Shown one piece after another: positions 40,707 through 60,888 of a stretch of 64,000 nucleotides of DNA (position 1 is the stretch's first letter; each line of letters starts with the position of its first letter). The translations under genes were made by a program, and so were the position numbers. The notes under the pieces are model-generated. The model saw only the letters and a program-made list of their open reading frames with translations, was not told where the DNA came from and made no database searches. Origin of the DNA: an uncultured Planctomycetota bacterium (GTDB lineage Bacteria > Planctomycetota > Planctomycetia > Isosphaerales > Isosphaeraceae); contig CAWGMQ010000010.1 of the NCBI GenBank assembly GCA_963823665.1, positions 256,001-320,000 of the forward strand, written 5' to 3'.

Positions 40707-41246
40707 ATGATGTCAGAAAAGAACTCGGTCGTCGCGATCTTCGAGTCGCACGGGCGGGCCGAAGACGCGATCCGCGAACTACAGCGAAGCGGCTTCGACA
40801 TGAAGAAGCTGTCGATCATCGGTAAGGATTACCACACGGAGGAGAACGTCGTCGGCTACTACACGACCGGCGAGCGCATGAAGTACTGGGGCAAGCTGGG
40901 AGCCTTCTGGGGCGGCTTCTGGGGGATTCTGTTCGGTTCAGCATTCTTCTGGCTGCCCGGCATCGGGACGGTGCTCGTGGCTGGTCCGCTCGTGGTCTGG
41001 ATCGTTGGCGCGCTCGAGAGCGCCGCGGTGATGGGCGGGCTCAGCGCCATGGGTGCCGCACTGTACAGCATCGGCATCCCGGAGGACAGTATCCTTCGAT
41101 ACGAAACACACGTGAAGAACGGCAAACTCCTCTTGCTCGTCCATGGGACGCCCGAGGAAGTGGAACGCGCCAAGAACCTCCTGGATCGGTCCGACGCAAA
41201 TTCAACGACGGTCCATGGCGAACAACTGGCCACCGCTGGCGCGTAA
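40707..41246 (+). CDS. General stress protein (YflT/DUF1269-like membrane protein)
   Basis: SVVAIF, LSIIGKDY, GAFWGGFWG, AGPL, ALYSIGIP; AAGGAGG RBS. Confidence 0.85.
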   Translation: MMSEKNSVVAIFESHGRAEDAIRELQRSGFDMKKLSIIGKDYHTEENVVGYYTTGERMKYWGKLGAFWGGFWGILFGSAFFWLPGIGTVLVAGPLVVWIVGALESAAVMGGLSAMGAALYSIGIPEDSILRYETHVKNGKLLLLVHGTPEEVERAKNLLDRSDANSTTVHGEQLATAGA

Positions 41247-41330
41247 CTCAAGGAAATCCGTGCAACACAAAGTTCCGGTCGGCCGCCGACCGGAACGTTA
41301 CACAGAAACATTCTCACGGGGAGGAACGAA

Positions 41331-42167
41331 GTGAGTTATGTAGAACGCTTCAGAGTGCCTCCCAGCACCACCGTCAAGCTTGCAGACATCGACCCGAGTT
41401 TCAAAAACCATCACGAGGGCCACAAGGAGGCGGCCAAGGAGATCGAGCACTACCGGCTGAGGCTGAGAGAACTGCAAGAGTTGCTCTATGCCGATGGACG
41501 GCGATCGCTCCTCATCTGCCTCCAAGCGCTCGACGCAGGGGGCAAGGACGGGACGATCGAACATATCCTGGGTTCGATGAATCCGCAAGGCTGCAAAGTG
41601 GTGGGGTTCAAGCAGCCTTCCGCCTTGGAGTGTGCGCATGATTTCCTGTGGCGAATCCATCGTGCCGTGCCTGCCCGTGGTGAAGTGGTCATCTTCAACC
41701 GTTCACATTACGAGGACGTCTTGATCGCTCGCGTTCATCACCTGGTCCCACATGAGATTTGGGCCCGCCGTTACGATCGAATCAATGCCTTCGAGAGTGG
41801 CCTCGTTGAGGACGGCACGGGCATTCTCAAGTTCTACCTCCATATCTCGAAACGCGAGCAACTGAAACGCTTCAAGGATCGGCTCGACGACCCTGCCAAG
41901 CAATGGAAGATCAGCGAGGCCGATTACAAGGAGCGAACCTGCTGGGGCGACTACACGGCGGCTTACGAAGATGCGCTCGCCCGTTGCAGCACCGAGCATG
42001 CCCCGTGGTTCATTATCCCTTCCGACCACAAGTGGTTCAGGAACCTCGCCGTGGCTCGGATCGTCGTGGAGCACCTGGAAGCGCTGAAGATGACATTCCC
42101 GCCTCCTTCGGTGGACATCGAGCACATTCGCAAGGAATATCACGCAGCGAAGAAGCATAGCCACTGA
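41331..42167 (+). CDS. ppk2: Polyphosphate kinase 2 family protein
   Basis: QALDAGGKDG, FKQPS, HDFLWR, FNRSHYEDV, APWFIIPSDHKW. Confidence 0.93.
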   Translation: MSYVERFRVPPSTTVKLADIDPSFKNHHEGHKEAAKEIEHYRLRLRELQELLYADGRRSLLICLQALDAGGKDGTIEHILGSMNPQGCKVVGFKQPSALECAHDFLWRIHRAVPARGEVVIFNRSHYEDVLIARVHHLVPHEIWARRYDRINAFESGLVEDGTGILKFYLHISKREQLKRFKDRLDDPAKQWKISEADYKERTCWGDYTAAYEDALARCSTEHAPWFIIPSDHKWFRNLAVARIVVEHLEALKMTFPPPSVDIEHIRKEYHAAKKHSH

Positions 42168-42235
42168 CCTGGAAGGCAGCGTTTCGAGAGAATGCGCCCG
42201 CGGCGGATTTGCGATGCTTGAAGCGGAGACACGAA

Positions 42236-43225
42236 ATGATCAGAGTGCCCATGTATCCGTTGCGATTCGAACCGATTTACCAGTATCGGCTCTGGGGCGG
42301 CCGGCGTTTGGCCTCGTTGCTGAAGGCGCCCCTCCCCGGCGACGGACCCATCGGCGAAGCCTGGCTGCTCTCCGACCGCGATGACCATCTCAGCACGGTC
42401 GCCGACGGACCGCTCAAAGGATCGACCATCCGGCAATTGATGGAGCAGTCGCCGGAGCAGTTGCTGGGAAATTTGGCGGGGCGATTCCGACGGTTCCCGG
42501 TGCTCCTCAAATTCCTCGACGCACACGACAAGCTCTCGGTTCAGGTGCATCCCCAGGATGAGCAGACCGACTATATCCCAGCCGGCGAGAGCGGCAAGAC
42601 CGAAGCATGGGTCGTGCTCGACGTGGCAAGGGACAGTTGTATCTACGCGGGCCTGAAGCGAGGCACCACTCAAGGTGATCTCGACCGAGCGCTCAAAAAC
42701 CGGGCGGTGGCGGACCTTCTGGCAGGCTTCACGCCGACGGTCGGCGACGCCGTCCTCGTCCGAGCTGGGACCGTTCACTCTCTCTCTGACGTGGTGGTTT
42801 TCGAAGTGCAGGAAAATAGCGACGTCACATTTCGCCTGTACGACTGGGATCGAACTGATCCCAAGACAGGCAAGCCTCGACCGTTGCAGGTCGAGCAGGC
42901 GGTTGCCTGCATCGATTTCGACCAGGTCGCGATAGGTCCGCTCAAGCCGGTGGTCGAGCAGGCGGCGCCGGTCCGGCGCGAGCGACTCTTTCAGTGTGAG
43001 CATTTCTCGGTGTGGCGGCACTCGGGACAGTCGCCGTTCACAGTCGGCGCGGCGAGCACGCCACGCGTGCTGGTTTGTCTCGCCGGCGAAGGGGAGCTCG
43101 AGCACGGCGGCGCCGATTATCCCCTCGGCCGCGGCGACGTCGTGCTCTTGCCGGCGGAGGTCGGCGCATGTTCCTGCCGGCCGCGCAATGCCGTCAGCCT
43201 GCTGGAGGTCGCGCTGCCGGAATAG
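42236..43225 (+). CDS. manA: Mannose-6-phosphate isomerase class I
   Basis: LWGG, IGEAW, FPVLLKFLDA..LSVQVHP, GKTEAW, GTVHSL, EVQENSDVTFRLYDW. Confidence 0.92.
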   Translation: MIRVPMYPLRFEPIYQYRLWGGRRLASLLKAPLPGDGPIGEAWLLSDRDDHLSTVADGPLKGSTIRQLMEQSPEQLLGNLAGRFRRFPVLLKFLDAHDKLSVQVHPQDEQTDYIPAGESGKTEAWVVLDVARDSCIYAGLKRGTTQGDLDRALKNRAVADLLAGFTPTVGDAVLVRAGTVHSLSDVVVFEVQENSDVTFRLYDWDRTDPKTGKPRPLQVEQAVACIDFDQVAIGPLKPVVEQAAPVRRERLFQCEHFSVWRHSGQSPFTVGAASTPRVLVCLAGEGELEHGGADYPLGRGDVVLLPAEVGACSCRPRNAVSLLEVALPE

Positions 43226-43243
43226 TTCCGCGCGGAGGGCACA

Positions 43244-43987
43244 ATGAAAAAGCTCGTGGTTTTCGACCTGGACGGAACCCTTGCCCAGAGCAAGTCATCG
43301 ATCGATGCCGAGATGGCAGCATTATTTGATAAGCTGCTCGTGATCATCAAAGTTTCTGTGATATCCGGTGGTAACTGGCCGCAATTTCAAAAACAGGTGC
43401 TTTCTCACCTTGCCAGTGACCAGCGATTGAAGAATCTTTCTCTCCTGCCTACTTGTGGAACACAGTTCTACAAATACGAAAGTGATTGGACTCGGATTTA
43501 CGCGGAGGATTTTACCCCTGAACAGAAAGAGAAGATTATCAGCTCACTCAAGAAAGCGATCGAGCAATCGGGCCTGAAGGCCGAAAAGGTCTGGGGCGAG
43601 GTGATCGAAGACCGGGGAAGTCAAATCACCTTTTCCGCGTTAGGTCAAGAAGCGCCGCTCGAAGAAAAGGTGAAATGGGACCCTGAGTTCGCCAAGCGGA
43701 AGAAGATGAAAGGTTTTCTTGACACGTTGATCCCGGAATTTGCAGTCCGCCTCGGTGGGTCGACGTCCATTGACGTCACGAAGCCGGGCATCGACAAAGC
43801 ATACGGGATCAGAAAGTTGCGAGACATTCTTGGCATTGCCATCGAAGAGATGATCTTTGTCGGCGATGCCTTGTTTCCCGGCGGCAACGACTATCCGGCC
43901 GAGCAAGCCGGTGTTGTTTCGATCCGGGTCAAGGATCCGCATGAGACGAAACGCGTTATCGAAACAATCATCGCTTGTCTGGGTTGA
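43244..43987 (+). CDS. HAD-IIB family hydrolase (phosphomannomutase-like)
   Basis: FDLDGTL, ISGG, IEDRGSQITFSALG, GGSTSIDV, GDALFPGGNDYP. Confidence 0.85.
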   Translation: MKKLVVFDLDGTLAQSKSSIDAEMAALFDKLLVIIKVSVISGGNWPQFQKQVLSHLASDQRLKNLSLLPTCGTQFYKYESDWTRIYAEDFTPEQKEKIISSLKKAIEQSGLKAEKVWGEVIEDRGSQITFSALGQEAPLEEKVKWDPEFAKRKKMKGFLDTLIPEFAVRLGGSTSIDVTKPGIDKAYGIRKLRDILGIAIEEMIFVGDALFPGGNDYPAEQAGVVSIRVKDPHETKRVIETIIACLG

Positions 43988-44020
43988 GTCCGGCCGAGCG
44001 AGACCTTGTGAGGGGAGCTA

Positions 44021-45211
44021 ATGGCAGGATTCCAAATGAAGCGACTCGGGATGCTGATGGAGCCCGAGCCGGGAAATGCCCTGGAGGTCGAAGGCGTCTT
44101 GAACCCGGCGGGGATTCGCGGCCCTGACGGTCAATTTTACCTTTTCCCTCGCCTGGTCGCGAAGGGGAATTTCTCGCGCATCGGCATCGCACGCGTGAAG
44201 TTCAATGAGGCCGGCGATCCGATGGGCGTTGAGCGCCTGGGCATCGCGCTCGAGCCCCAAACCGATTACGAGCTGCGGCCTGACGGCAGCGGAGGCTGTG
44301 AGGATCCGCGAATTACTTTTGGCGAAGACATCAAACGCTACGTCATGACTTACACGGCGCTTTCGCCCGAAGGCCCACGGATTGCCCTGGCCCTATCCGA
44401 GGACCTGTTCCACTGGCAGCGTTTGGGGCTGGCGACCTTCCGCCCGTATGAGGGCATCGAGTTCGACGGTGTGGACAACAAGGATGCCAGCATCTTCCCA
44501 GTGGCCATTCGCGATCCTGAAGGGAAGCCGGCAATGGCCATACTCCACAGGCCACTCTTTCCCGGAACTCGTCCTGAGGAAACGGTCTCTCAACCGGCGT
44601 CCCGCGCGGTTGATCCGCAGCGAGAGAGCATCTGGATTTCCTACTGTCCACTGGGCAGGGTTGACGATCTTCCGTATCACCTCAGCCATTTTACTCTGCA
44701 TAACCGGTTGGCCAGCCCGGTGGCGCCCTGGGAGCAGCTCAAGATCGGCGGCGGCACTCCTCCCGTCCTGACCCGGCACGGATGGATGGTTATCTACCAC
44801 GGCGTCCGCACACTGGCGGGCTCGACCACGGCAGCGCGCAAGTTATGTTACTCCGCCGGTGTGATGGTGCTCTCCAAAGAGCTTCCCCGTTTGATTCGTT
44901 ATCGCTCGCCTGAACCGGTGCTGACGCCGGAATTGCCGCAGGAATGCATCGGGACCGTTGCCCACGTCGTGTTTCCGACCGCCATCGACCGGCGCGATGA
45001 TCTCGGCCTGCCCGATCGATTCGACGTTTATTACGGGATGGCCGACAACCGGATCGGAGTGGCGCGTCTCGACGTGCCGAAGACCTTGCCCCCAGGGGGA
45101 CTCGCCGACCCGCCCCGAGCCAATCGCTCAATTCCCATCGATCGTCAATCCAAGACGGAGAGTCGCGAACGCGTCCCGGTCAACACTAAAGGAGGTTCCT
45201 CGCCAACATGA
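44021..45211 (+). CDS. GH130-like glycosidase / mannoside phosphorylase
   Basis: [44 protein letters not shown]. Confidence 0.85.
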
Positions 45212-47252
45212 CTTACTCAGCCACCATCGCTCCGCCGGAACTGGACGAGCTCTGTGTCAATACGCTGCGCTTCCTGGCGGTGGACGCCGTGCAGAAAGCC
45301 AAGTCCGGCCACCCCGGCCTGCCTCTGGGTTCCTCGGCGATGGCTTATGCACTCTGGGATCGCTTTCTCAAGTTCAACCCGTGTGATCCCATCTGGCCCG
45401 ACCGCGATCGCTTTGTTCTCTCGGCCGGCCATGGATGTGCGCTCTTGTACGCGCTGCTTCATGTCACGGGCTTCGATTTGCCGCTGGCGGAGCTCGAGAG
45501 GTTCCGCCAGTGGGGAAGCCGTACCCCAGGCCATCCGGAATATGGAAAGACGGAAGGCGTCGAGGCCACCACCGGTCCCTTGGGGCAAGGCCTGGCCAAC
45601 GCCGTCGGCATGGCCATCGCCGAGGTCGCTCTTGCAGCGCGCTTCAATCGACCTCGTCACCAAATCGTGGACCACTACACTTACGTTTTGGCCAGCGATG
45701 GCGATCTGGAGGAAGGGATATCTTCCGAGGCTGGATCAGAAGCCGGTCACCTGCGGCTTGGCAAGCTCATCGTCCTCTATGCCGACAACCACATCACGAT
45801 CGAGGGCAGCACGAAGCTCGCCTTTACCGAAGACCGTTCGGCCCGTTTCGCCGCGTTCGGCTGGCATGTCCAGCGGGTCGAAGCCAGCAACGACGTTGAC
45901 GCGATCGCTGCCGCGATCGAGGCTGCCAGGGAAGAGACGGGTCGGCCGTCCTTGATTCAGGTTCGCACCCACATCGGCTTCGGCAGCCCCCACAAGCAAG
46001 ACACCGCTGCGGCCCACGGCGAGCCACTCGGCCTGGAAGAAGTTCGTCTGACCAAAGAGGCGCTGGGCTGGCCGGTCGAACCTCCCTTCCATATTCCCGA
46101 GGAGGCCCTGGATCATTTCCGGGAAGCAGTCGCGCGGGGAGCACTGCGCACGCGGAATGGAAGTTACGTCTCGAACTTTATGCGGAGGAACACCCCGACC
46201 TCGCCGCAGAGTTCGAGCGGGTCACGCTTCGGCAACTTTCGAGCGGCTGGGATGCCGACCTCCCGACATTCACCTCAGGCGAAGGCCCAATGGCAACCCG
46301 CATCGCTTCGGGAAAGACGATCGCGGCTCTGGGCTCTCGTCTTCCCGAGTTGATGGGAGGCTCGGCCGATCTTGCTCCCAGCACCCATACGAACATGGAC
46401 GGGGCCGGCAGCTTCGAGCCTGAGACCCGATCGGGACGCAACATGCACTTCGGCATCCGGGAGCATGCCATGGGCGCCATTCTGAACGGTATGGCGCTCC
46501 ACCGCGGCCTCATCCCGTATGGAGCAACCTTCCTGATCTTCAGCGATTATATGCGTCCGCCGATGCGCTTAGCGGCCATGAACGGCCTGCCGGTGATCTA
46601 TGTCTTCACCCACGACAGCATCGCCATGGGAGAGGACGGCCCAACCCATCAGCCTGTCGAACATTTGCTGGGACTCAGATCCATCCCCGGCATGGTTGTC
46701 ATCCGGCCGGCCGATGCGAACGAGACGGTTGCCGCCTGGCGTGTCGCGATCGAGCACAGAGAAGGTCCGGTCGCCCTGGTGCTCACGCGCCAGGGACTCC
46801 CCGTGCTCGAAATTGCCCGATATCCGGGCGTACCCGCTGGAGTGCCCCTGGGTGGCTATGTCCTCGTGGACTCTCCTGCCAGTTGTTTACCCGATATCAT
46901 TCTGATTGCGACCGGTTCCGAAGTGCATCTCGCGCTCGAGAGCCGTGAACGGTTGGCGACCGAGGGCGTCCAGGCCAGGGTGGTGAGTCTGCCGAGCACC
47001 AACCTCTTCTCGATGCAGTCGGAGAAATATCGGAACAAGGTCTTGCCCCCGGGCGTGCCCCTCTTGGCCATCGAGGCCGGTGCGTCCCTCGGCTGGAAAT
47101 CCTATGTCGGTCCCCAGATCGCCGTGATCGGCGTGGACACCTTCGGGGCATCAGCCCCCGGGCCAGTCGTGATGCAGCATTATGGCTTCACAGTCGAGAA
47201 TGTCTGCAACCAAACCCATAACTTGCTCGGCCAAGTCAAGGAGAAACGGTGA
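45208..47252 (+). CDS. tkt: Transketolase, frameshifted near 46140
   Basis: [58 protein letters not shown]. Confidence 0.95.
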
Positions 47253-47698
47253 TGCGCGTGGGAATTGCCGCGGACCATGGAGGGTTTGCTCTCAAGGTAG
47301 AGATGGCTGAGGCCCTTCGGACCGCCGGGCATGAAGTCGTCGATTTCGGCGCACGCATCCTGACTTCGGGGGATGACTACCCCGATTACGTTGTACCCCT
47401 GGCTCTGTCGGTGGCAGAGGAGAAAGTCGAACGTGGCGTGGCCTTTTGCGGGAGTGGCGTGGGAGCGTCCGTCGCCGCCAACAAGGTGCCCGGCGTTCGT
47501 GCCGGTCTGATCCACGACGTTTACTCGGCGCACCAGGGAGTCGAAGACGACAACATGAACATGCTTTGCATGGGTGGACGGGTAATCGGCCCGGCGCTGG
47601 CGTGGGAACTCGTCCAGGCGTTCGTGGCCGCCCGCTTCAGCGGAGCCGAACGCCACCAGCGCCGTTTGGCGAAGGTGGCGGCCCTGGAGAACGACTGA
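47252..47698 (+). CDS. rpiB: Ribose-5-phosphate isomerase B
   Basis: ADHGG, DYPD, CGSGVG, ANKVPGVRA, RHQRR. Confidence 0.93.
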   Translation: MRVGIAADHGGFALKVEMAEALRTAGHEVVDFGARILTSGDDYPDYVVPLALSVAEEKVERGVAFCGSGVGASVAANKVPGVRAGLIHDVYSAHQGVEDDNMNMLCMGGRVIGPALAWELVQAFVAARFSGAERHQRRLAKVAALEND

Positions 47699-48064: not shown

Positions 48065-48439
48065 TCAGCGCTTGGCTTGGTGGCAAGGGGGTGGCTCGGC
48101 CAGCGTCACGACAACAAACGCTTCGCCGGTTACCGTGCTGATGTCGTGGTGCAGACTGACCACCTTGACGTCGGTGACATCCTGGACCATCGCTTGTATG
48201 AGCGGCTTCGCCGTTTCGATCAGTTGGGTCCGTATTTGCTTGAGCAAATCCCTCCCCCTATCGGATGGGAATTTGGCAAGGTGCTGTTCGGCGGGTGTCA
48301 ACATGCCCTGAAGCCGGACGACGATGAAATCCCCGAGCAGGAAGGCGCGAATGTTTTTGGGGCCTCGGCCCCTGTATTCCTGCTCAAAGCGACTCATCAC
48401 GTCGCAGATGGCGGCCTCGATTTCTCCTTGGGTTTTCAT
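48065..48439 (-). CDS. DUF2294 (MpsC-like) protein
   Basis: KTQGEIEAAI, GRGP, LTPAEQHL, GRDLLKQIR, SLHHDISTVTGE; ATGA-overlaps the kinase stop. Confidence 0.92.
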   Translation of the reverse strand: MKTQGEIEAAICDVMSRFEQEYRGRGPKNIRAFLLGDFIVVRLQGMLTPAEQHLAKFPSDRGRDLLKQIRTQLIETAKPLIQAMVQDVTDVKVVSLHHDISTVTGEAFVVVTLAEPPPCHQAKR

Positions 48440-50406
48440 CGTGCCGGCAACTCCGAGACGGTCGCCAAGATTTGCAGCACCTTCCCGAAATCGCCCGGCT
48501 TGACCAGGTGGTGATCGAACCCCGCATCGAACGAACGCTGAAGGTCGCTCACCCCTCCGTACCCGGTCATGGCGACAAGCACAGCATTCTGGAGAGCGGG
48601 CTGCTGACGTATCTGCTTCGCGACCTCAAAGCCATTGAGCCCCGGCAAGCCGATGTCGAGCAGCACCACGTTCGGCCGGTAATCGAGGGCCGCTTCCAGG
48701 ACGGCTGAGCCGTCGTAAGCCATCCTGACATCGTGGCCGGATTCATTCACCAGCAATGCCAGGGTCGTCACGGTATCCACGTTGTCATCCACAACCAGCA
48801 CGCGCAAGGATTGTCCGCTCGATTGGGCCGACTGGGGAGACGGCGATGCCGGCTGCTGCTGGGGAGGTGACACCACCGGCAGACGCACGACGAACTCGCT
48901 GCCTTGCCCCAAAACGCTAGTTGCCGCCACCGTTCCACCGTGCATTTCCACGAGGCGCTGCACCAAAGCCAGTCCGATGCCCAACCCACCTTGCGAGCGG
49001 TCCAGGGACCGTTCCCCCTGGGTGAACAGGTCGAAGATGCGGGGCAGTGTTTCGGGGGCGATGCCGACGCCCGTATCCCGCACACGCAGCACCGCCTCCG
49101 TGCCCTCTTGTTGCAACGTCAACCAAACGTGACCGCCTCGCTCCGTGTACTTGGCGGCATTGGTCAGCAGGTTCACCATCACTTGTTCCAACCGGGCAGC
49201 GTCGGCGTTTAGCCAGATCGCTTGCGCGGGCAGCGACACGGTGAGTTCATGCTTGCGCAGGTCGATCAGCGACCGGACGGTCGCAACCGCGTGTTCCACG
49301 ACGACGCCCACGGCAATCGGTTCTTGATGAAGCTGAATCCTTCCGGTGGTAATGCGAGAGACTTCGAGTAGTTCATCAACGATCTGCGTCAGTTGTCCGA
49401 CCTGACGCTCAATGATGCTGGCGGATTGCTGAAGTATTGGGTTCTCGATACCGTGCAGTCGATTCCGATTGCTGTGCAGGCGCAGGAGAAGAGCGGCATT
49501 GAGGATGGGGGCAAGGGGGTTGCGAAGTTCATGGCTGAGCATCGCCAGGAACTCATCTTTGCGGCGGTCCAGGTCGGCGAGTGCCGCTGCCTGCTCCTGG
49601 GTCAGTCGCTGCAAGCGTCTGCGTTCGGTGATGTCGCGGATGTTGCATTGAACGACCTGGTGTTGGTTCTCCGCATAGACGTTGCTGACGAACTCGACCT
49701 CGACGTTTTGGCCACTTCTGTTCTCGAGGGGCAGGTTTTCATAGCGGACGTAGCCCGTCTTTTGCAGTTCCCGGTAGGCGGCCTGGCTCTCTTCGATATG
49801 GCGGAACAGACCGATCTCCCAGAGTTCCTTGCCCAGGAACTCATCGTGCGAGAAGCCCAGCAAGGTCGTCATGAACGGGTTGGCGTCGATCACCTTACCC
49901 GTGAGTGCGTCGAGGATGAGGATGCCGTCCTTGGCCATCTGGAACAGCCGCCGATACCGGACTTCGGAGTGCGCCATGGCGGCGTCCGTCTGCCGGCGAG
50001 CAGTAACGTCCTCGATGGCTAGAAGGACCAATTCCGGCTCGTTGCTCTCCGGCGGGAACCTGCGGGCGTTAAGCAGCATTGTCCTTTGCCCGAGAGTCGG
50101 GAAGGTGTGTTCAACCTCGACGTCTTCAATGGGATGGCTGTTGGAAAGAACTTGGGGCAGCAACGTCCGCAGTTGGGGGATGTCCCACTGACCGTTGCCC
50201 AGGTCATAGACGAAGCGGCCCTCCGTGTCCTCTTTCGAGGCATGGAAATCCCGGTAGAACGCGCCGTTGGCGGTGCGTACCCGCAGGCTCTTGTCGAGAA
50301 CCACGAACGGCTCTCTCAGGGTCGCGATGATGTTTTCAGCGTACGCAAGGGCGAGCTGCAGTTCTGTTGTGCGCTTGTCAACGTTCGTTTCCATGCCGTT
50401 TCCCAT
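48436..50406 (-). CDS. PAS-PAS hybrid histidine kinase / receiver
   Basis: FLAMLSHELRNPL, NLLTNAAKY, DTGVGI, GLGIGL, VLVVDD, LDIGLP. Confidence 0.93.
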   Translation of the reverse strand: MGNGMETNVDKRTTELQLALAYAENIIATLREPFVVLDKSLRVRTANGAFYRDFHASKEDTEGRFVYDLGNGQWDIPQLRTLLPQVLSNSHPIEDVEVEHTFPTLGQRTMLLNARRFPPESNEPELVLLAIEDVTARRQTDAAMAHSEVRYRRLFQMAKDGILILDALTGKVIDANPFMTTLLGFSHDEFLGKELWEIGLFRHIEESQAAYRELQKTGYVRYENLPLENRSGQNVEVEFVSNVYAENQHQVVQCNIRDITERRRLQRLTQEQAAALADLDRRKDEFLAMLSHELRNPLAPILNAALLLRLHSNRNRLHGIENPILQQSASIIERQVGQLTQIVDELLEVSRITTGRIQLHQEPIAVGVVVEHAVATVRSLIDLRKHELTVSLPAQAIWLNADAARLEQVMVNLLTNAAKYTERGGHVWLTLQQEGTEAVLRVRDTGVGIAPETLPRIFDLFTQGERSLDRSQGGLGIGLALVQRLVEMHGGTVAATSVLGQGSEFVVRLPVVSPPQQQPASPSPQSAQSSGQSLRVLVVDDNVDTVTTLALLVNESGHDVRMAYDGSAVLEAALDYRPNVVLLDIGLPGLNGFEVAKQIRQQPALQNAVLVAMTGYGGVSDLQRSFDAGFDHHLVKPGDFGKVLQILATVSELPAR

Positions 50407-50562: not shown

Positions 50563-51102
50563 TCAAGATGTCGGCGGCTCGTAGACATTGATGTGGTCCG
50601 GCCCTTGGGCGGCTAGCAGGCTGTGCGCGCGGGCCACGACCTCCGGAATGGACCGGACGATTACGAGAAACTTGCCCCCCTTGACGTGATTCTCGTAGTT
50701 GATCGCCCGGTCCTTCGGAACACCCCAGCCTACGAGCGCGCCCGCGAGGGTGCCCAGCGCGGTTCCCGCCAGCGCCCCTTCGATGCCCGCCAAGAGCGCC
50801 GCCGCGAGTGGACCGGCGACCCCGACGAGGCCCAGTCCCGGCAAGACCAGGAATCCCGCTCCAACGCACAGGCCGAACAGCCCCCCGAACAAGGACCCGC
50901 TTTCCGCCCCGGCCGTGACATAGTCGCCGCGGCTGACGAAGCCGCATGGCACCTCGGTCACCTGAGAGCCGCGGCCCACGATCGAGAGATCGTCGAGCGC
51001 GAACCCACCTACGTGGAGCTGCCGCACCGCGCGCTCGGCGGAAGCATGGTCGGGATAAACCGCCACGACGCTGGAAACAATCGCAGTTACCGCCTGGCTC
51101 AT
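50563..51102 (-). CDS. General stress protein, paralog family of 40707..41246
   Basis: SVVAVY, LSIVGR, GGLFG, AGPL, ALVGWGVP, YENHVKGGK. Confidence 0.85.
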   Translation of the reverse strand: MSQAVTAIVSSVVAVYPDHASAERAVRQLHVGGFALDDLSIVGRGSQVTEVPCGFVSRGDYVTAGAESGSLFGGLFGLCVGAGFLVLPGLGLVGVAGPLAAALLAGIEGALAGTALGTLAGALVGWGVPKDRAINYENHVKGGKFLVIVRSIPEVVARAHSLLAAQGPDHINVYEPPTS

Positions 51103-51151
51103 GATCGATTCCTTTTGTCGGGATTACTGCCCGGTTGGACGCCAGTGAAAG

Positions 51152-52633
51152 TCAGTTGGTTTCAGGGATCTCCTTCGCTTCCGTGACGGGACCGCCTTGA
51201 GTGAGGATCGACAGGTTTCCCAGGATCATCTGCTCCGTGCCGTCGATCGGCGTCCAGGGTTCATCGCCGCTGGACGCCGCGTCGGAGCCTGAGCCGCGGC
51301 GATTGGTGACCTCGATCCACTCGCCGTCGCTGACCCCGGTCTCTACTTCGATCCGTTTCGCATAGCCGTTCTCGCAGATCCAGCAGAACGACCTCTCCCC
51401 GACCTGCAATATGGTCTTGTCGCCGAGGTGCATGAGCGCCGAAACCGGCAGAGCCCACACGCCGGGCCGCTCGATTGTCACTTTGGCGTAAGCGTACATC
51501 CCTGGAAGGAGCTGGCTGCCTGGGTTGGTCAGGTCGATCTCGGCGCGGAGAGTGCGGCTCTCGATGTCGAGCGCCCATGCCGTTCGCGTGACGGTGCCGG
51601 GAATCGGCTGGTCGCGGAACGCCCTGATGAGCACGGTGGCCTTGGAGCCAACGTGGACGTAATTCGCGTAATGCTCCGGGATGTCGACGAAGATGCGGAC
51701 GATGTCCGTGCGGTCGACCACATAGATCGGCGCGGCGGAGCCACCGGGCGAGAGGTAGGGACCGCGGCGATTGGCCGAGGGGTCGCCCGTGCTGGGCAGG
51801 ACGAAATCGAAGGTATTGGCATTACGGGCCACGATGACGCCGTCATAGGGCGCGGGAAGTACGAGGTAATCCACCCAGGCCTGGAGCCGCTTCTCTTCGC
51901 TCTGGGCGAATTTCAGGTCGGCTTCGGCGACACCGACGTCCACGTTGGCCTCGGATAGCGCGGCCCGCTCGGAAAGCAGTTCGGCGCCGGCCTTCAGGAC
52001 CGTTGCGGCCGCCGCGTCCCGGGACGCGACGGACGCCTTCCAACGATTCGTGGTCTGGAGGACATCCTGGGGATTGACCACGCCCCGCTTGAGCTCCTTG
52101 TCCAGCCGCTTGGTCTCCGAGTCCCAGCGCTCGGCCTCGGCCCGATAGCCGGCGTGTTCCGCCCGGGCTTCCTCAAGCCGCGCCTGGGCCGCCTCGACGT
52201 CGGCCTTGGCCACTTTCACGGCCGCCTTGGCCAGCTCGATCTGCTCCAGGTCGAGCGCGACTATCGCCTTCTTCGTAGCGTGGTCCTCAACCAGCTCGGG
52301 CGCGAAGAGGTTGGCGAGCACATCGCCTTTCTTAACCTTGTCGCCGATGTCTACGATCCAATTCAGGATGTAAGCGTTCATTTTCGGATAGACCGACGAG
52401 CGCTCGTAGCTCTGCGTGAAGCTGGGCTGCCCGATGACCCGGACGATATCCCGGACCTGCGGCTGGACCAGCCGCACTGTCGGGGGTCTGCCCACACTCG
52501 TATAGTGGGACTCCGCCTTGTGGTGGCACCCCGACGGCACCAGGACGGCCAGAAGACCGAACGGGAGCTGGAACACCAGGCGGCGGCAGTGCACCAGGCT
52601 ATCCGAACGGGCGGAGAACGTGAATCGGCGCAT
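51152..52633 (-). CDS. RND efflux periplasmic adaptor (MFP) 2
   Basis: Lipobox-like SGC, VDIGDKVKKGD, coiled coil, APYDGVI, SRTLRAEIDL, LLPGMY. Confidence 0.9.
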   Translation of the reverse strand: MRRFTFSARSDSLVHCRRLVFQLPFGLLAVLVPSGCHHKAESHYTSVGRPPTVRLVQPQVRDIVRVIGQPSFTQSYERSSVYPKMNAYILNWIVDIGDKVKKGDVLANLFAPELVEDHATKKAIVALDLEQIELAKAAVKVAKADVEAAQARLEEARAEHAGYRAEAERWDSETKRLDKELKRGVVNPQDVLQTTNRWKASVASRDAAAATVLKAGAELLSERAALSEANVDVGVAEADLKFAQSEEKRLQAWVDYLVLPAPYDGVIVARNANTFDFVLPSTGDPSANRRGPYLSPGGSAAPIYVVDRTDIVRIFVDIPEHYANYVHVGSKATVLIRAFRDQPIPGTVTRTAWALDIESRTLRAEIDLTNPGSQLLPGMYAYAKVTIERPGVWALPVSALMHLGDKTILQVGERSFCWICENGYAKRIEVETGVSDGEWIEVTNRRGSGSDAASSGDEPWTPIDGTEQMILGNLSILTQGGPVTEAKEIPETN

Positions 52634-52646
52634 CACTGGCCCCCCA

Positions 52647-54197
52647 TCAAGGTAGGCGCCTCGCCAGGCGCGAAGTGTCAGGAAGTCGGGGATCGCCCGG
52701 GGACAGTCGTGTGCCTGGATCATGATCCGGCGCGGGCGCCTCGATCGCGATTTTCGTCGCCACCGTCGCGGCGGTGATCTCAACGGCGCCGCCCTCGGTG
52801 AGCGCTGACAAATCGCCGAGGATCACCTGTTCCTTGCCGTCGATCTGCGCCCAGGCAACCGAGTCGCGGGGCGCCTCCCGTGGGACCGGGGGCCGGCGAT
52901 TGCTGATCTCGACCCATTTGTCGTCGCTGACGCCCGTCTCGACTTCAGTCCGCACTGCCTTGCCGTTTTCGTAGAGCCAGCAGAAGGTCTGGTCGCCGTT
53001 ATGAACGAGTGCCGAAAGCGGCAGCGCCTGGACGTCCGGACGCTCAATGATCACCTTGACGTAGGCGTACATCCCGGGCAGGAGCTGGCCTTCAGGGTTG
53101 CTAAGGTCGACCTCGGCGCGGAGCGTTCGGCTCTTCATGTTCAGCGCCCAGGACGTGCGCGTGACGGTGGCCGGCAACTCGGTGTCGCGGAAGTCCCGGG
53201 CAAGCACGCTCGCCTTTGTCCCGATTTTTACGAAGTTGGCGTCTCGTTCCGGGATGTCGAGAAAGATCCGGACGATGTCGAGTCGCTCGACCACGTAGAT
53301 CGGCGCGGCCGTGCCGCTGGGCGAAAGGTTGGGGGAGAGGTAGTAGGCCGTGGGATCGCCTGTAGTGGGTTGGACAAAGTCGAAAGTGTTGGCGTTGCGG
53401 GCTGAGATCACGCCGGTGAAAGGGGCATTTAGCGTGAGATAGTCCACCCAGGCTTTCGCATATCTCTCTTCGCTGTCGGCCACCTTCAGAGTGGCTACCG
53501 CGACCCTGACGGCGACCTGCGTCTTTTCGAGCTTGGCCCGCGCGCTGAGCAATTCCGCCTTCGCCCTCTTGATGGTCGCTTTCGCCTTGTCCAGCGCAGA
53601 GATGCTCGATTTGAGTTGATTGGTCGACTCGAAGAGGATCAAGGGATGGATCACGTGCAGGGCGACCTGTCGAGCCAGCCGATCGACCTCCGTTTGCCAG
53701 CGGTCGACCTCGGCATTGTACTTATTGAGGATCGCCTCGGCCGCTGCAAGGCGCGCCTCGGCCGCGTCGACGTTGGCCCGGGCCACCTCGACCATCTCTT
53801 TGGCCAGCGATATCCGTTCTCGGTCGAGCACGACGGCTGCCTTCTTCGTTCCGAGCTCCTCGACTAGCTCGGGCGCGAACAGGGTGGCAACCACGTCGCT
53901 TTTCTTTACCTTGTCGCCGATGTCGACGATCCACTTCGTTATGTAGGCTGTCGGCTTGGGATAGATCGACGTGCGCTCGTAGCTCTCGATGAAGCTGGGC
54001 TGGCCCACGACCCGCACGATGTTCCGAGACTGCGGCTGGATCAGCCGCACGCTCGGCGGCTTCGTGTTGCCTTCGAATTCGATCTTGTGTTCGCTACGGC
54101 AGCCAGACGCCGCCAGGGTGACAATGAGCCAGGGCACCAGCCGACGGCGGCCGGCGGCCCGATCCGAAATCGCGGGCGAGAGAATCCGGCGCATCAA
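52647..54197 (-). CDS. RND efflux periplasmic adaptor (MFP) 1
   Basis: ASGC, VDIGDKVKK, APFTGVI, SRTLRAEVDL, LLPGMY. Confidence 0.9.
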   Translation of the reverse strand: MMRRILSPAISDRAAGRRRLVPWLIVTLAASGCRSEHKIEFEGNTKPPSVRLIQPQSRNIVRVVGQPSFIESYERTSIYPKPTAYITKWIVDIGDKVKKSDVVATLFAPELVEELGTKKAAVVLDRERISLAKEMVEVARANVDAAEARLAAAEAILNKYNAEVDRWQTEVDRLARQVALHVIHPLILFESTNQLKSSISALDKAKATIKRAKAELLSARAKLEKTQVAVRVAVATLKVADSEERYAKAWVDYLTLNAPFTGVISARNANTFDFVQPTTGDPTAYYLSPNLSPSGTAAPIYVVERLDIVRIFLDIPERDANFVKIGTKASVLARDFRDTELPATVTRTSWALNMKSRTLRAEVDLSNPEGQLLPGMYAYVKVIIERPDVQALPLSALVHNGDQTFCWLYENGKAVRTEVETGVSDDKWVEISNRRPPVPREAPRDSVAWAQIDGKEQVILGDLSALTEGGAVEITAATVATKIAIEAPAPDHDPGTRLSPGDPRLPDTSRLARRLP

Positions 54198-57100
54198 GGA
54201 CCTCCGGGTGAGAAAAGTGCGGGCCCCGGCGAATGTCCGCCATCAGGGGACCGGCGGTGTTCGTCCGTTTGCGGCTGAGACAAGGCCGAATCGGCAGCGT
54301 CTTCATCGTCAGACATGCTCTGGCCGGCGGCGGCAGGCGGGACGAAGTGCTCGCTGTCGGGATCGTCCGGATGAATCGACGACGAGACGGCCTTCTTCTT
54401 GCCGATCACGATCGCAAAGATTGACGGGACGATGAGCAAGGTGGCCACCGTCGACATCACCAGCCCGCCGATCACCGCGCGGCCGAGCGGGGCCTGCATC
54501 TGGCTCCCGCGCTCCAAGGCCAGCGCCATCGGCACCATGCCGGTGGTCATCGCGCAGGCCGTCATCAGGATCGGCCGCATACGCTCGCTGGCACCGAGCA
54601 CCGCCGCCTGCGCTGACCGGTTTCCGGCCTTCCAGTGATCGTTGGTGAAAGCAACGAGCATGACCGAGTTCGAGACCGAGACGCCCAGGCTCATGATCGA
54701 GCCCATGAACGACTCGATGTTCAGAGATGTGTTGGTCACATAGAGGATGATCGCGATGCCGGCCAAGACACCCGGCACGGCGCTGATCGATATCAGGGCC
54801 AGGCGCAGCGACTGGAAATAGGCGGTCAAGAGCACGAGGATCACGAACACAGCGACCCCCAGCCCGATCCCGAGCGACTCGAACATCTCGTCCATCGGCG
54901 GCAGCTGGCCCATGGTCTCGACCCGCACGCCGCGGGGCGGATCACCGACGGCGGCGAGCGCCTGGGCGACCTGCCGTGACGCCCGGCCCATGTCCTCGCC
55001 CTCGACATTCGCCGTCAGCGTCAGGTAGCGCTGTGACATGTCGCGGTCGATCTCGCCGGGCCGCACGCCCCTCTCGACCGTGGCCACGTCACGGATCATC
55101 AGATTGACCAGCGGGTTGATCGATTCCAGCGGCAACGTCTCGATGCCTTCTGGCTTGTCGATCCGCAACGGCGGTATCTGGAGCTGCACCAGGTAGTCGA
55201 AACCCGTCTTCTCGTCGATCCAGTAGTTGAGCGAGGCGAAGCGGGTCGACGCCGTCGCCATGACGATGGCATGGGCCACGTCGGAGACCTTGGCTCCGGA
55301 GAGCCCCGCCTTTTCGCGGTCGATGGTGACCTCGACGGTCGGGTAGTCGAGCGACTGCACGAACTCGACGTCGCGGAGGAACGGGATGCGCCTCATGTTG
55401 GTCGCGATCTTTTCTGCGTGCTGCCGCACCAGCTTCAGATCGGTGCCGACGATCCGGACCGCGATCGGCGTCAGCGAGCCGAAGCTCATGACCTTGGTGA
55501 CCATATCGCCCGGTTCGAAACCGAAGGTCGACAGCGCCGCTTGCTTTTCCGCCTCCTCCTTGGCCAGGCCACCCTGCTCCAGCCGCTTGGCCAGCCATGG
55601 AATCACCCGCTTGGGCAGGACCTTGCGCAGGCGCTCGCGGAACTCGTCGAGCTTGATCCCGCTGTCCTCCGTGAGCGCGATCCGCAACTGGCCGTCGTCG
55701 GGCCCGCGCATGAACAAGACCATGTTGTCGATGCCGAAGTTTGTAGCGACCTGGCCGACGTAGCCCATCGTGATCTTCATATGCTCGGGCGTTGCCTCGC
55801 GCTCGATCTCCTCCAAGCACTTGATCGCCATCTGGCGCGTCAACTCGAAGTTCGAGCCGGGCGGCGGCCGGAACCGCAGCACGAATTCCCCCGAATCGAT
55901 CTGCGGGAACAGCTCGGTGCCAACCTGCAACCCGACCAGCCAGAGGATCAGGCCGCACGCCCCGAGATATCCCGGCACCACAAGCCAGCGCAGGCGAACG
56001 AGCCAGGTCACAACTTTGGTATAAGCATCGAGAAACCGATCGAACAGCCCGCGCTTTTTGCCATGCCCCTTGTTCTTGACCATGTGCACGCACAGGATCG
56101 GTACCAACATGATCGTGAGCAGATACGCCGAGATCATGGCGAACCCAACCGCCAGTGTCAGTGGCATGAACAGCGACCGGAGCGGGTCTTTCATGATCAG
56201 CGCCGGTGTGAATACGGACAGGATGCATAACAGTGCCAGCAGGATCGGCACGGCCGTGGCGTTGGCCGCGCCCAGCACCGCCCTGGCAATCTTGGGCGTT
56301 TGCCCCATCTGCACATGCAAGTTCTCGATGTTTACCGTCGACATATCGACGAGGATGCCGATCGACAGCGCCATGCCGCCCAGCGACATGATGTTGATCG
56401 TGTTGCCCGTCAGCCAGAGTCCGACGAACGACCCCATGAGCGCCAGCGGGATGGTGGCCACGACGACGAGCATGCTCCTCAAGTCGCCGAGGAACAGGAA
56501 GATCATGAGTCCGGTCAAGCCCGCGCCAATCAAACCTTCTGTAGCGACGCTCTCGACGGCCGCCACCACGGCGGGCGACTCGTCGAACTCGAAGTTGATC
56601 GAGACGTCCTTGGGGACCGCGTCGCGGAACATCTTCATCGACTTGTGGACGTCGGCCACGACGGTCAACGTCGATCCAGTGTCTTTCTTGATGACCGGCA
56701 GGTAGACCGCGTTCTTGCCGTTGACGAGCGCGTATCCATACGTGATATCGACATAGTCCTGGATAGTCGCCACGTCGCGGAGGTAGACGTTCCTCTCCAT
56801 CCGGAGCGGAATATCGCCCAGCTTCTGGATGTCGCCCACCGTCGCGTTATTGGCGACCATCGGCATCGAGTCGTGGATGTAGACGTTCCCCGCGGGGATG
56901 ACGGTATTCCCAGTCGCCAGGGCATCAATGACCTGCTGCGGCGTCAGGTTGTAGTCCAGGAGCTTGTGCGGGTCGACGTTGACGACGATCGACCGCATGT
57001 TCGGGCCGAACGGCGAGATCGCCACCGTGCCGGGGACGTTCTTTTGCACCAGCGGCCGGATGACGTTATTGGCCAGGTCCCCCATCGCCCCCAGCGAGGT

Positions 57101-57541
57101 GACGTCGCTCTCGAACACCAGGTAGCCGACCGGGACGGAGCCTGAGTCCATCCGCATGATCATCGGCGGCAAGGTCCCCTTGGGCATCCACGACATCGCC
57201 CGGTCGGACATCGCCACGACCTGGGCCATCGCCTGGCCCATGTCGGTCCCGGGGAAGAACGAGAGCTCGCACAAGGCCACCTGCTGGATGTTCCGCGTAT
57301 TGATATCCTTGATGCCATCGACGTACTGGAAATACAACTCGAGCTCATTGACGATGAAGCCCTCCATCTGGTCGGGGCTCATGCCGATGTAATCGAGGAA
57401 GACGTAAATCTTCGGGACGTTCAGCGAGGGGAAGATATCCACCCGCATCCTGGTGAAGCCCAGAAGGCCACCGCTGATCAGGGCCACGACCAGCATCATG
57501 ATCGTGATCGGGCGCCGCATCGCGAATGAAGTCGGGTTCAT
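54194..57541 (-). CDS. RND efflux permease, copy B
   Basis: VDIFP, TINIMSLGG, GILVDMSTVNIEN, LFMPL, RMRPILMT, PLGRAVIGGL. Confidence 0.93.
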   Translation of the reverse strand: MNPTSFAMRRPITIMMLVVALISGGLLGFTRMRVDIFPSLNVPKIYVFLDYIGMSPDQMEGFIVNELELYFQYVDGIKDINTRNIQQVALCELSFFPGTDMGQAMAQVVAMSDRAMSWMPKGTLPPMIMRMDSGSVPVGYLVFESDVTSLGAMGDLANNVIRPLVQKNVPGTVAISPFGPNMRSIVVNVDPHKLLDYNLTPQQVIDALATGNTVIPAGNVYIHDSMPMVANNATVGDIQKLGDIPLRMERNVYLRDVATIQDYVDITYGYALVNGKNAVYLPVIKKDTGSTLTVVADVHKSMKMFRDAVPKDVSINFEFDESPAVVAAVESVATEGLIGAGLTGLMIFLFLGDLRSMLVVVATIPLALMGSFVGLWLTGNTINIMSLGGMALSIGILVDMSTVNIENLHVQMGQTPKIARAVLGAANATAVPILLALLCILSVFTPALIMKDPLRSLFMPLTLAVGFAMISAYLLTIMLVPILCVHMVKNKGHGKKRGLFDRFLDAYTKVVTWLVRLRWLVVPGYLGACGLILWLVGLQVGTELFPQIDSGEFVLRFRPPPGSNFELTRQMAIKCLEEIEREATPEHMKITMGYVGQVATNFGIDNMVLFMRGPDDGQLRIALTEDSGIKLDEFRERLRKVLPKRVIPWLAKRLEQGGLAKEEAEKQAALSTFGFEPGDMVTKVMSFGSLTPIAVRIVGTDLKLVRQHAEKIATNMRRIPFLRDVEFVQSLDYPTVEVTIDREKAGLSGAKVSDVAHAIVMATASTRFASLNYWIDEKTGFDYLVQLQIPPLRIDKPEGIETLPLESINPLVNLMIRDVATVERGVRPGEIDRDMSQRYLTLTANVEGEDMGRASRQVAQALAAVGDPPRGVRVETMGQLPPMDEMFESLGIGLGVAVFVILVLLTAYFQSLRLALISISAVPGVLAGIAIILYVTNTSLNIESFMGSIMSLGVSVSNSVMLVAFTNDHWKAGNRSAQAAVLGASERMRPILMTACAMTTGMVPMALALERGSQMQAPLGRAVIGGLVMSTVATLLIVPSIFAIVIGKKKAVSSSIHPDDPDSEHFVPPAAAGQSMSDDEDAADSALSQPQTDEHRRSPDGGHSPGPALFSPGGP

Positions 57542-60500
57542 TTCCCATCCCTCCCGTCCTGGCTGTCAAGGTCGGTGTGCGGCTGAAACGAACCTGAATC
57601 GAAAGCGTCCTCTTCGTCGGAGGTGCTCTCGGCGCCGGCGGCCGGCGGGTCGTAGTGGGTACTATCGGGATCGTCCGGATGAATCGACGGCGAGACGGCC
57701 TTCTTCTTGCCGATCACGATCGCAAAGATTGACGGGACAATTAGCAAGGTGGCCACCGTCGACATCACCAACCCGCCGATCACCGCGCGGCCGAGCGGGG
57801 CCTGCATCTGGCTCCCGCGCTCCAAGGCCAGCGCCATCGGCACCATGCCGATGGTCATAGCGCAGGCCGTCATCAAGATCGGCCGCATACGCTCGCTGGC
57901 ACCGATTACGGCCGCCTCCGCTGCCGGCTTTCCGGCCTTCCAATGTTCGTCGATAAACGTCACGAGCATCACCGAGTTCGAGACCGAGACGCCCAGGCTC
58001 ATGATCGAGCCCATGAACGACTCGATATTGAGTGAGGTATTGCTGAAGTAGAGGATGGTCGCGATGCCCGCCAAGACCCCGGGCACCGCTCCAATCGATA
58101 TCAAGGCCAGGCGCGGCGATTGGAAGTAAGCCGTCAAGAGCACGAGGATCACGAACACGGCGACTCCTAGCCCGATCCCGAGCGACTCGAACATCTCGTT
58201 CATCGGCGGGAGCTGGCCCATGGTCTCGACCCGCACGCCGCGGGGCGGATCACCGACGGCGGCGAGCGCCTGGGCGACCTGCCGCGACGCCCGGCCCATG
58301 TCCTCGCCCTCGACATTCGCGGTCAGCGTCAGGTAGCGCTGTGACATGTCGCGGTCGATCTCGCCGGGCCGCACGCCCCTCTCGACCGTGGCCACATCGC
58401 GGATCATCAGGTTGACGAGCGGGTTGATCGATTCCACCGGCAAGGTTTCGATGTCTTCCGGCTTGTCGATCCGCGATGGCGGTATCTGGAGCTGCACCAG
58501 GTAGTCGAAACCCGTCTTCTCGTCAATCCAGTAGTTGAGCGAGGCGAAGCGGGTCGACGCCGTCGCCATGACGATGGCATGGGCCACGTCCGAGACCTTG
58601 GCTCCGGAGAGCCCCGCCTTTTCGCGGTCGATGGTGACCTCGATCGTCGGGTAGTCGAGCGACTGCACGAACTCGACGTCGCGGAGGAACGGGATGTGCC
58701 TCATGTTGGTCGCGATCTTTTCTGCGTGCTGCCGCACCAGCTTCAAATCGGTGCCGACAATCCGGACCGCGATCGGCGTCAGCGAGCCGAAGCTCATGAC
58801 CTTGGTCACCATATCACCCGGCTCGAAACCGAAGGTCGACAACTTCGCTTGCTTTTCCGCCTCCTCCTCGGCCAGGCCACCCTGCTCGAGCCGCTTGGCC
58901 ATCCAGGGAATCACTCGCTTGGGCAGGACCTCGCGCAGCCGCTCGCGGAATTGGTCGAGTTTGATCCCGCTGTCCTCCGTGAGCGCGATCCGCAACTGGC
59001 CGTCGTCGGGCCCGCGCATGAAGAGCACCATGTTGTCGATGCCGAAATTCGGGGCAACCTGGCCGACGTAGCCCATCGTGATCTTGATATGCTCGGGCGT
59101 TGCCTCTCGCTCGATCTCCTCCAAGCACTTGATCGCCATCTGGCGCGTCAACTCGAAATTCGAGCCGGGCGGCGGCCGGAACCGCAGCACGAATTCCCCC
59201 GAATCGATCTGCGGGAACAGCTCGGTGCCGACCTGCAAGCCCAGCACCCAGAGCACCAGGCCGCACGCCGCAAGATAGGCTGGCACGGTCAGCCATCGCA
59301 GCCGGACGAACCAGCCTACCGCCCTTCCGTAGACCTTGAGGGCCCGGTCGAATAGCCCGGGCTTCTTCTCGCCATGGCCCCCGTGGTGCTTCAGCAGGGC
59401 CACGCTCATGATCGGCACGAACATGCTCGAGAGCAGGTACGACGAGATCATTGCAAACCCGACGCCCAAGGTCAGCGGCATGAACAGCGACCGGAGCGGG
59501 TCGGTCATGATGAAGGCCGGGATGAACACCGACAGGATGCAGAGCAGCGCCAGGAGACGCGGCACGGCCGTGGCGTTGCTCGCGCAGCATCGCCATTGCG
59601 ACGTTCGGCGCGTGCTCCATCTGGACGTGCGTGTTCTCGATCGTCACCGTCGCCTCGTCGACCAGGATGCCGATCGACAGCGCCATGCCGCCCAGTGACA
59701 TGATGTTGATCGTGTTGCCCGTCAGCCATAGCCCGACCAACGACCCCATGAGCGCCAGCGGAATGTTGGCCACCACGACGAGCACGCTCCTCAGATCGCC
59801 GAGGAACAACAGGATCATTAGCCCCGTCAATCCCGCGCCAATCATGCCCTCGGTGGCCACGCTCTCAACCGCTGCCACCACGGTTGGCGACTCGTCGAAC
59901 TCGAAGTTGATCGAGACGTTCTTGGGAACGGCGTCGCGGAACAACTGCATCGACTTATGGACGTCGGCCACCACGGTCAACGTCGATCCCGTGTCTTTCT
60001 TGATGATCGGCAGATAGACCGCGTTCTTGCCGTTCACGAGCGCGTATCCATACGTGATATCGACATAGTCCTGGATAGTCGCCACGTCGCGGAGGTAGAC
60101 GTTCCTCTCCATCCGGAGCGGAATATCGCCCAGCTTCTGGATGTCGCCCACCGTCGCGTTGTTGGCGACCATGGGCATCGAGTCGTTGATGTAGACGTTC
60201 CCCGCGGGGATGACGGTGTTCCCTGTCGCCAGGGCATCAATGACTTGCTGCGGCGTCAGGTTGTAGTCGAGGAGCTTGTGCGGGTCGACGTTGACGACGA
60301 TCGACCGCATGTTCGGTCCAAACGGCGAGATCGCCACCGTGCCGGGGACGTTCTTTTGCACCAGCGGCCGGATGACGTTATTGGCCAGGTCCCCCATCGC
60401 CCCCAGCGAGGTGACGTCGCTCTCGAACACCAGGTAGCCGACCGGGACGGAGCCTGAGTCCATCCGCATGATCATCGGCGGCAAGGTCCCCTTGGGCATC

Positions 60501-60853: not shown

Positions 60854-60888
60854 AGTCCACACTCCCTGTCTGCTGCGCGACCGCGGCA

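Follow-up and report, generated by a model that had tools for sequence, protein, structure and literature searches.

In a 64,000-nucleotide stretch of an uncultured planctomycete genome (G000:C10:256001-320000; hereafter the window), we found a gene of the MpsC/DUF2294 family that overlaps the gene for a hybrid sensor kinase and lies in a neighborhood whose gene runs are headed by a structured leader RNA ending in a terminator. The genome (G000) comprises 16.46 Mb and is 91.9% complete, and the relatives at the loci we compared are Planctomycetota. As judged by sequence comparison, the leader, MpsC proteins of the clade and type seen here (clade 1, MpsC-A) and this kinase family occur together, and there are proteins in which a receiver (REC) domain is fused to MpsC. 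Because the kinase and MpsC genes overlap, MpsC is elsewhere fused to a phosphorylation switch, and MpsC tracks an RNA offering a stop-or-go choice, the two proteins probably constitute a new two-component system whose target is RNA, not DNA. To our knowledge, RNA-acting two-component systems are very few, with ANTAR and CsrA-type outputs.

The MpsC gene (48065..48439, minus strand) encodes a 124-amino-acid protein of the A type and of a kinase-coupled subclade, which we regard as a candidate RNA-binding antiterminator output protein. Residues 3-114 match PF10057 at 122.4 bits (cut-off 23), and R25, R42, R63, K67, R70, H97 and D99 are retained. The preceding gene (48436..50406, minus strand) encodes a 656-amino-acid protein with the Pfam domains PAS (residues 31-139), PAS (150-261), HisKA (283-355), HATPase (402-511) and REC (536-647). 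It has the hallmarks of a hybrid histidine kinase: HELRNP at 292 forms the H-box, both the N and the G box are present, and the sequence LLDIGLP stands at 582. The kinase stop and the MpsC start overlap as ATGA (gap of -4), and coordinates, Pfam domains and gap agree with an earlier note, made from the sequence alone, that described a stand-alone DUF2294 gene coupled in this way to a PAS-PAS-HisKA-HATPase-REC kinase. The note was also right that MpsC ends the minus-strand run, on which rpiB converges from 366 nucleotides away. A Pfam scan of block proteins (16, plus one RND permease and one membrane-fusion protein) found no helix-turn-helix domain, in line with its claim that the block holds no DNA-binding regulator. 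Its placement of MpsC midway between two leaders needs correction, since these are 7.5 kb and 13.5 kb away; the gene sits where two leader-headed runs converge. The seven MpsC matches in G000 have their nearest leaders at 67, 184, 232, 2043, 3751, 7533 and 8326 nucleotides, which makes the window copy the second farthest.

Coupling of the kinase to MpsC is conserved among the nearest relatives. All seven of the closest MpsC loci carry the orthologous kinase directly upstream, six with an ATGA overlap and one at 108 nucleotides. A subclade of ten rows, composed of these seven and three more, is kinase-adjacent throughout and has SH-aLRT support of 98; the tree, like the second one built here, is a quick tree rather than a finished search. 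Elsewhere in G000, an MpsC gene lies directly upstream of a kinase paralogue with 83% identity, and at locus L157 the kinase stands behind a leader that diverges from MpsC. The kinase-MpsC link outlasts such rearrangement of gene order.

In five genomes a leader heads an operon in which a related kinase is followed by a REC-MpsC fusion protein, and a metagenome locus (L196) is a sixth case in which REC-MpsC comes after a kinase. When the kinase was searched for across the class, five of the six loci with a nearby MpsC were REC-MpsC fusions. A second fusion type keeps the motif GRGP. Among 120 listed proteins in a search covering lengths of 160-511 amino acids, 51 combine PF00072 with PF10057 (53 by our own profile), and a protein atlas holds a REC-MpsC cluster of 69 members. 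The phospho-accepting Asp of the receiver in this second type is invariant and its Ser and Lys are conserved at 90% or more; this receiver compares best with PhyR (E 7.6e-12), below the cut-off. Because these fusions exist, and because the order REC then MpsC in the window is the domain order of the fusions, the comparison suggests that MpsC serves as the output domain of a response regulator. In one case, P0303, a protein of 346 amino acids combines CheR (PF01739) with MpsC. At L317:3164-8594, genes that look KaiC/KaiB-like by sequence lie between a leader and a kinase/REC-MpsC pair.

The leader RNA is 110-114 nucleotides long. One window copy (61968..62078, minus strand; rod ~62008-62075, terminator ~61969-62014) heads the run that ends in kinase-MpsC, and a second (40454..40565, plus strand) heads the opposing run; together they form a 93-nucleotide inverted repeat (77%). 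At least 25 copies are present in G000, many ahead of general-stress genes; 25 candidates were scored and 24 aligned. The RNA can fold in two mutually exclusive ways, as a rod hairpin or as an intrinsic terminator, both of which use the segment CCG(G/A)C. Among 117 leaders, the terminator is the minimum free energy structure in 115 and is more stable than the rod by 7.9 +/- 2.4 kcal/mol, and the rod forms in 116 when the terminator half is removed. Mutually exclusive structures with the terminator the more stable are a feature that the leader shares with protein-dependent antiterminators in general. In the terminator alignment 93.7% of cells are paired, with double changes in 13 of 19 pairs. 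Double changes also occur in 14 of 31 rod columns (mismatch columns included), as many as in none of 500 shuffles, a test that is inflated by the relatedness of the leaders. In 93 of 106 leaders from outside G000 (the other 13 lack the anchor for this comparison), hardly any variation is seen at the base of the rod, where UCGGAHGACU pairs with AGUAAGCCG and the A.G and G.A mismatches are fixed; the upper stem shows covariation. The loop is variable (3-4 nucleotides), a GGA is present in the rod of 90 of the 93, and the element is a single rod without a multi-stem junction. Since the more stable terminator and the rod compete for the CCG(G/A)C segment, we read the leader as an attenuator that is OFF by default and requires a stabilizer.

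The leader had no Rfam match at the gathering score and by E-value only hairpin-level noise, and a known riboswitch or Rfam family was rejected for lack of a meaningful covariance-model match. Upstream of the rod, the 130 leaders examined for a conserved alternative-sigma promoter gave no positional signal beyond -8, and a search for leader peptides found AUG-NNN-UGA in some copies only. A subset of copies has an extra GGGAGYC...GGCUCCC hairpin 5' of the rod (for example, at ~40405-40442 of the window). A hit in G072 (E 4e-4) and antisense terminator echoes were dropped from the leader counts. We found no description of the leader RNA or of a REC-MpsC regulator in literature that did not extend to two motif-survey supplements, which may hold the motif. 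The 'yjbJ motif' is confined to Streptococcus by its description (PMC11109978); the one supplement file of PMC8632094 that was searched gave no match, and the accessible part of PMC7857571 contains nothing relevant.

The distribution of the leader follows that of MpsC. We compared 79 MpsC loci, which derive from the best 80 of 601 and are biased to close relatives, some sharing a genome. L290/L319, apparently the contig of L108 again since length and genes agree, is not counted as independent. A leader lies within 6 kb in 73 of the 79, and in 58 it is divergent from MpsC within 500 nucleotides; at the leader density of G000, proximity by chance would be about 2%. In a class sample of 150 genomes, 33 have MpsC, 16 have the leader and 14 have both, such that MpsC occurs in 14 of 16 leader-positive genomes versus 19 of 134 others (p 4e-9, a statistic that, like those below, counts related genomes as if independent). 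When G003 and G125, whose leaders were used in model building, are removed, the comparison is 12 of 14 versus 19 of 134 (p 7e-8). The association is kept within families (f1, p 4e-4; f2, p 1e-4, or 0.0015 without model genomes; f76, p 0.018), and in a phylum sample MpsC is found in four of five leader genomes. Examination of 18 of the 19 MpsC-only genomes (all but G269) revealed the second MpsC type in 16 and a B-type protein at the locus examined in two. The quick tree mentioned above splits 20 rows from 97 with support of 100. Most second-clade genes are followed by other terminator-ending leaders (judged by eye), so that leader type goes with MpsC clade. The independence of leader and DUF2294 that the earlier note named as grounds for abandoning its proposal was not seen. 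With this co-occurrence, the conserved coupling and the leader-headed fusion operons, the kinase/DUF2294/leader regulon it proposed is well supported as a genomic unit, with a putative action on RNA.

Other leaders were noticed beside MpsC genes. A shorter type (GGCAGAU ... AUARGCC) lies just 3' of second-clade MpsC at L051:1921-2015, L056:1924-2014, L054:1901-1997, L059:1951-2040 and L052:1963-2058. A B-like domain follows the shorter leader in L056 and L069, and in L069 it shares one open frame with PEPCK. A third type (GUGACCCG...GACAUAGGCCGG) is found 3' of MpsC in L275, L276, L279, L280 and L281. By their N-termini, the next genes in L278, L286 and L280 look like carbonic anhydrase or SbtA. 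The cassette also occurs in metagenome-assembled genomes labelled archaeon, Alcaligenaceae, Bacillota, Deltaproteobacteria and Fimbriimonadales (L136, L158, L167, L177 and L109), through either mis-binning or transfer.

A paralogue of MpsC-A, MpsC-B (hhalign 98.3%, 24% identity), is present in 49 of the 79 loci and begins at most 250 nucleotides behind 23 of 57 divergent leaders; all 14 genomes with leader and MpsC have at least two MpsC-family matches. It is acidic (pI 5.2) and has R25, R42, R63, K67 and R70 replaced. We speculate that MpsC-B is an antagonist or a partner of MpsC-A.

As a tentative model of the whole, we propose that a two-component pathway acting on RNA has MpsC-A as its output protein. 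MpsC-A would bind the invariant base of the rod through its conserved Arg and Lys residues and, when bound, would block the terminator and thereby turn on a general-stress regulon. The kinase may activate MpsC, elsewhere via the fused receiver and here via either a separate receiver or the REC at the kinase's own C terminus, which is the weaker inference. A leader ahead of the kinase-MpsC operon would provide positive feedback, and a leader-controlled MpsC-B, devoid of the basic residues, might damp the response by pairing with MpsC-A, although this is speculative. The steps differ in strength. That MpsC-A works with the leader is likely. Direct binding of the RNA by MpsC-A is somewhat favored, and control of MpsC-A by the window kinase is evenly balanced between yes and no. 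A wider generalization seems rather doubtful: that MpsC is an unrecognized RNA-binding response-regulator output domain without a close solved structure, that the planctomycete kinase/(REC-)MpsC pair induces the general-stress regulon through antitermination at dozens of leaders and has a built-in antagonist in MpsC-B, and that other clades' own leaders serve carbon-handling genes.

An AF2 model of the window MpsC has the order alpha-beta-beta-alpha-alpha-beta-beta (pLDDT 93.5), and the Protein Data Bank contains no match to it by sequence. The KH-type protein RbfA aligns over 89 residues (Z 5.3, rmsd 3.6), and unrelated chains score higher. In S. aureus, the DUF2294 protein SAUSA300_0178 was enriched among UV-crosslinked proteins by PTex (log2 2.65, p.adj 0.002; PMC9130240).

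A number of observations weigh against the model. Structure prediction followed by Foldseek, which the earlier note had suggested as a route to an RNA-binding fold, led to no clear one: no match reached E <= 0.001 (best E 0.01), and the VIA wide fold search gave none at Z >= 8, the best (Z 7.0) being a collagenase. The window protein is near neutral (pI 7.8, with 16 K+R versus 15 D+E). The crosslinked DUF2294 protein is one of 384 in the PTex sheet, the only sheet in which it appears, PTex has a high background, and MpsB was enriched too (PMC9130240). Deletion of mpsC in S. aureus caused no growth phenotype, and the accessible text of that study gives MpsC no function (PMC6689103). The kinase link is narrow: for the other 72 MpsC query genes, the directly upstream position is never occupied by a kinase or receiver. 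Metagenome kinases adjoin MpsC in three of four cases at 75% identity or more, three of 17 at 65-75% and none of 50 below; the lower bins cover stand-alone MpsC only and contain a few own-genome kinases. In the class search, six of 22 loci outside G000 have MpsC within 1.5 kb. The five fusion genomes belong to one family, two of them to the same genus, and carry an altered form of the GRGP motif. Without model-building genomes the phylum sample falls to one of two (p 0.16, uninformative). MpsC was undetected in three leader genomes, G198, G263 and G055, the first two with weak leaders (51.5 and 42.2 bits), and G125 and G203 keep the leader with a sole A-type match that is partial or carries a stop. 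Finally, the own-genome copies of the kinase have DNA-binding regulators nearby, Crp-like and NarL-like, which could be its real output.

In an alternative reading, MpsC-A operates the leader and the kinase is a regulon member or cassette passenger that signals to DNA-binding regulators, with MpsC governed by its own ligand, its expression level or MpsC-B. The commonest cassette, the divergent one, has no kinase directly upstream of MpsC, the kinase is itself a leader target in L157, as are several other kinases and regulators in G000, and Crp-like pairs flank it in L104, L105, L106 and L108 (proteins of the same type were typed as Crp). We nevertheless consider this unlikely, as it leaves aside the two types of REC-MpsC fusion with intact receiver and a kinase adjacency that spans different MpsC lineages and gene orders. 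It is similarly improbable, in our estimate, that MpsC serves as a sensor or signal relay (a phospho-acceptor through H97, for example, or a ligand-binding cofactor) and that the rod is bound by a small molecule, a CsrA-like cassette protein or MpsC-B. The conserved HxD motif would fit phosphotransfer or ligand binding, fold searches found no RNA-binding fold, and the rod GGA together with the CsrA-like gene that follows 19 of 57 divergent leaders would suit a CsrA-type binder. Each substitute for MpsC-A has its own difficulty, however. G000 contains ten CsrA-family genes and the shorter leader has GGC instead of GGA; a riboswitch would need no partner gene, yet 73 of 79 loci are paired, and the leader offers one rod and no junction of several stems; and MpsC-B has lost the five basic residues.

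The least probable explanation, which we give very little weight, is co-location only, with leader, MpsC and kinase riding on shared mobile stress islands without acting on one another. The patchy spread (MpsC in 33 and the leader in 16 of 150 genomes), the clustering in islands and the non-independence of related genomes are compatible with it. The fixed divergent spacing, an association that persists within families f1, f2 and f76, the tracking of MpsC clade by leader type and the domain fusion speak against it. The RNA-acting kinase/MpsC pathway is the most probable single reading, at somewhat below even odds.

In G000, the proteins encoded at the start of leader-headed runs, or soon after it, include YflT, BON, Band 7, DUF3309, CsbD, transglycosylase-associated, DUF1328 and BrkB/YihY proteins, and further targets include SpoIIAA-like, HPr, CsrA-like and ferritin-like proteins, kinases and a sigma54 regulator (34 selected proteins were scanned). 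We take these to be a general-stress set. The earlier note stated that mpsAB is missing from the window, which is borne out genome-wide, as DabA/MpsB (DabA PF10070) has no match in all of G000, although at 91.9% completeness its absence is unproven. Because no DabA was found and the targets are of the general-stress type, the bicarbonate framing of that note does not fit this clade, and a bicarbonate/MpsAB link was rejected for it.

A 65-kb island on the same contig (G000:C10:2424000-2489200; L038-L041) contains 13 leaders, five MpsC matches, kinases and many stress genes, as well as a Crp-like pair, a NarL-type regulator and the 83% kinase paralogue. Just past the MpsC-kinase paralogue pair, a leader is followed at once by an HPr-family gene (L040:841-1372), which is possibly part of a phosphorelay. 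The CsrA-like genes of the divergent-leader cassettes stand behind the leader or MpsC-B (for example, L110:1788-2650, L111:643-1476 and L047:9593-10094) and tie the regulon to translational control.

Between the minus-strand leader and the kinase, the window encodes an unknown open reading frame, two RND permeases (one frameshifted), two membrane-fusion proteins and a YflT-domain protein (50563..61953, minus strand). Intergenic gaps in this run are -4 to 49 nucleotides, followed by 156 nucleotides before the kinase, and a crude terminator scan found no minus-strand terminator between the leader at 61968-62078 and MpsC. The run through kinase-MpsC is probably one leader-gated operon, judging from its layout. 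The opposing run (40707..47698, plus strand), with genes for YflT, PPK2, mannose-6-P isomerase (PMI), PMM, GH130, a split transketolase and RpiB, is probably a leader-gated operon as well. The transketolase (45208-47252, plus strand) is broken into two overlapping frames by either decay or assembly error, and pieces are also present in the related L104 block. The first of the tandem RND permease genes is the frameshifted one (57538-60889, minus strand), and the RND and membrane-fusion genes of the window are duplicated with 74-90% identity. A Gly/Tyr-rich repeat protein without a Pfam match (62599-63354, plus strand) is divergent from the minus-strand leader.

If the wider generalization holds, S. 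aureus MpsC and B. subtilis YbcI would gain a function. If the model is true, RNA-acting two-component systems would gain one more protein-RNA pair, without a close solved structure. It would also give MpsC/DUF2294 a testable function and suggest a possible mode of general-stress control in some planctomycetes.

The S. aureus and B. subtilis proteins belong to the same Pfam family, PF10057, as the MpsC described here, which differs in that it is kinase-coupled, has a B paralogue and stress-type targets, and comes from a genome in which no DabA/MpsB was found. The ndhF operons of both species presumably contain mpsC or ybcI. A terminator-type or short leader transcript upstream of ndhF is reported in both (PMC2790875, PMC2965217), including RsaX05, annotated 'Cis-acting leader of ndhF?' (PMC2790875), and the 158-nucleotide ncr181 between adaB and ndhF (PMC2965217). 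The accessible text of a recent preprint mentions neither ybcI nor mpsC and terms the regulation unexplored (bioRxiv 10.64898/2026.09.08.750065).

The kinds of target (CsbD, DUF1328, BON, ferritin-like, YflT, transglycosylase-associated, DUF3309 and BrkB/YihY) are shared with the general stress regulons of sigmaB, RpoS and PhyR-NepR-sigmaEcfG. However, control here is apparently exerted at transcription termination and not via a sigma factor. The leader shares its arrangement with the BglG/SacY/LicT-RAT systems, where the default is also OFF and a weak, internally looped hairpin competes for the 5' arm of a stronger terminator. In contrast to these systems, there is no CAT/PRD Pfam match and no Rfam match, the rod has roughly twice the length, and stress genes rather than sugar phosphotransferase operons are the targets.

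The closest parallel is with ANTAR systems (EutW/EutV, AmiR and NasT), in which a sensor kinase and a receiver-fused output domain control terminator leaders across a regulon that includes the regulator's own operon. A kinase, a receiver-output fusion and terminator leaders repeated over the regulon and before the regulator operon are all found here, although a receiver fused to the output next to the kinase is a feature of relatives, whereas the window MpsC is a separate gene. The output is an alpha/beta MpsC domain rather than the ANTAR domain PF03861, the fusions combining PF10057 with PF00072, and the RNA is one irregular rod of ~65 nucleotides with a variable 3-4-nucleotide loop instead of the twin hexaloop hairpins of ANTAR targets. 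An ANTAR protein as binder of the leader was rejected on RNA shape; the two ANTAR genes of G000 map to contigs C1 and C8, not to that of the window. Taken together, the kinase/MpsC/leader module is real and conserved, and by analogy it would work like ANTAR-type antitermination while standing outside both the ANTAR and BglG families.

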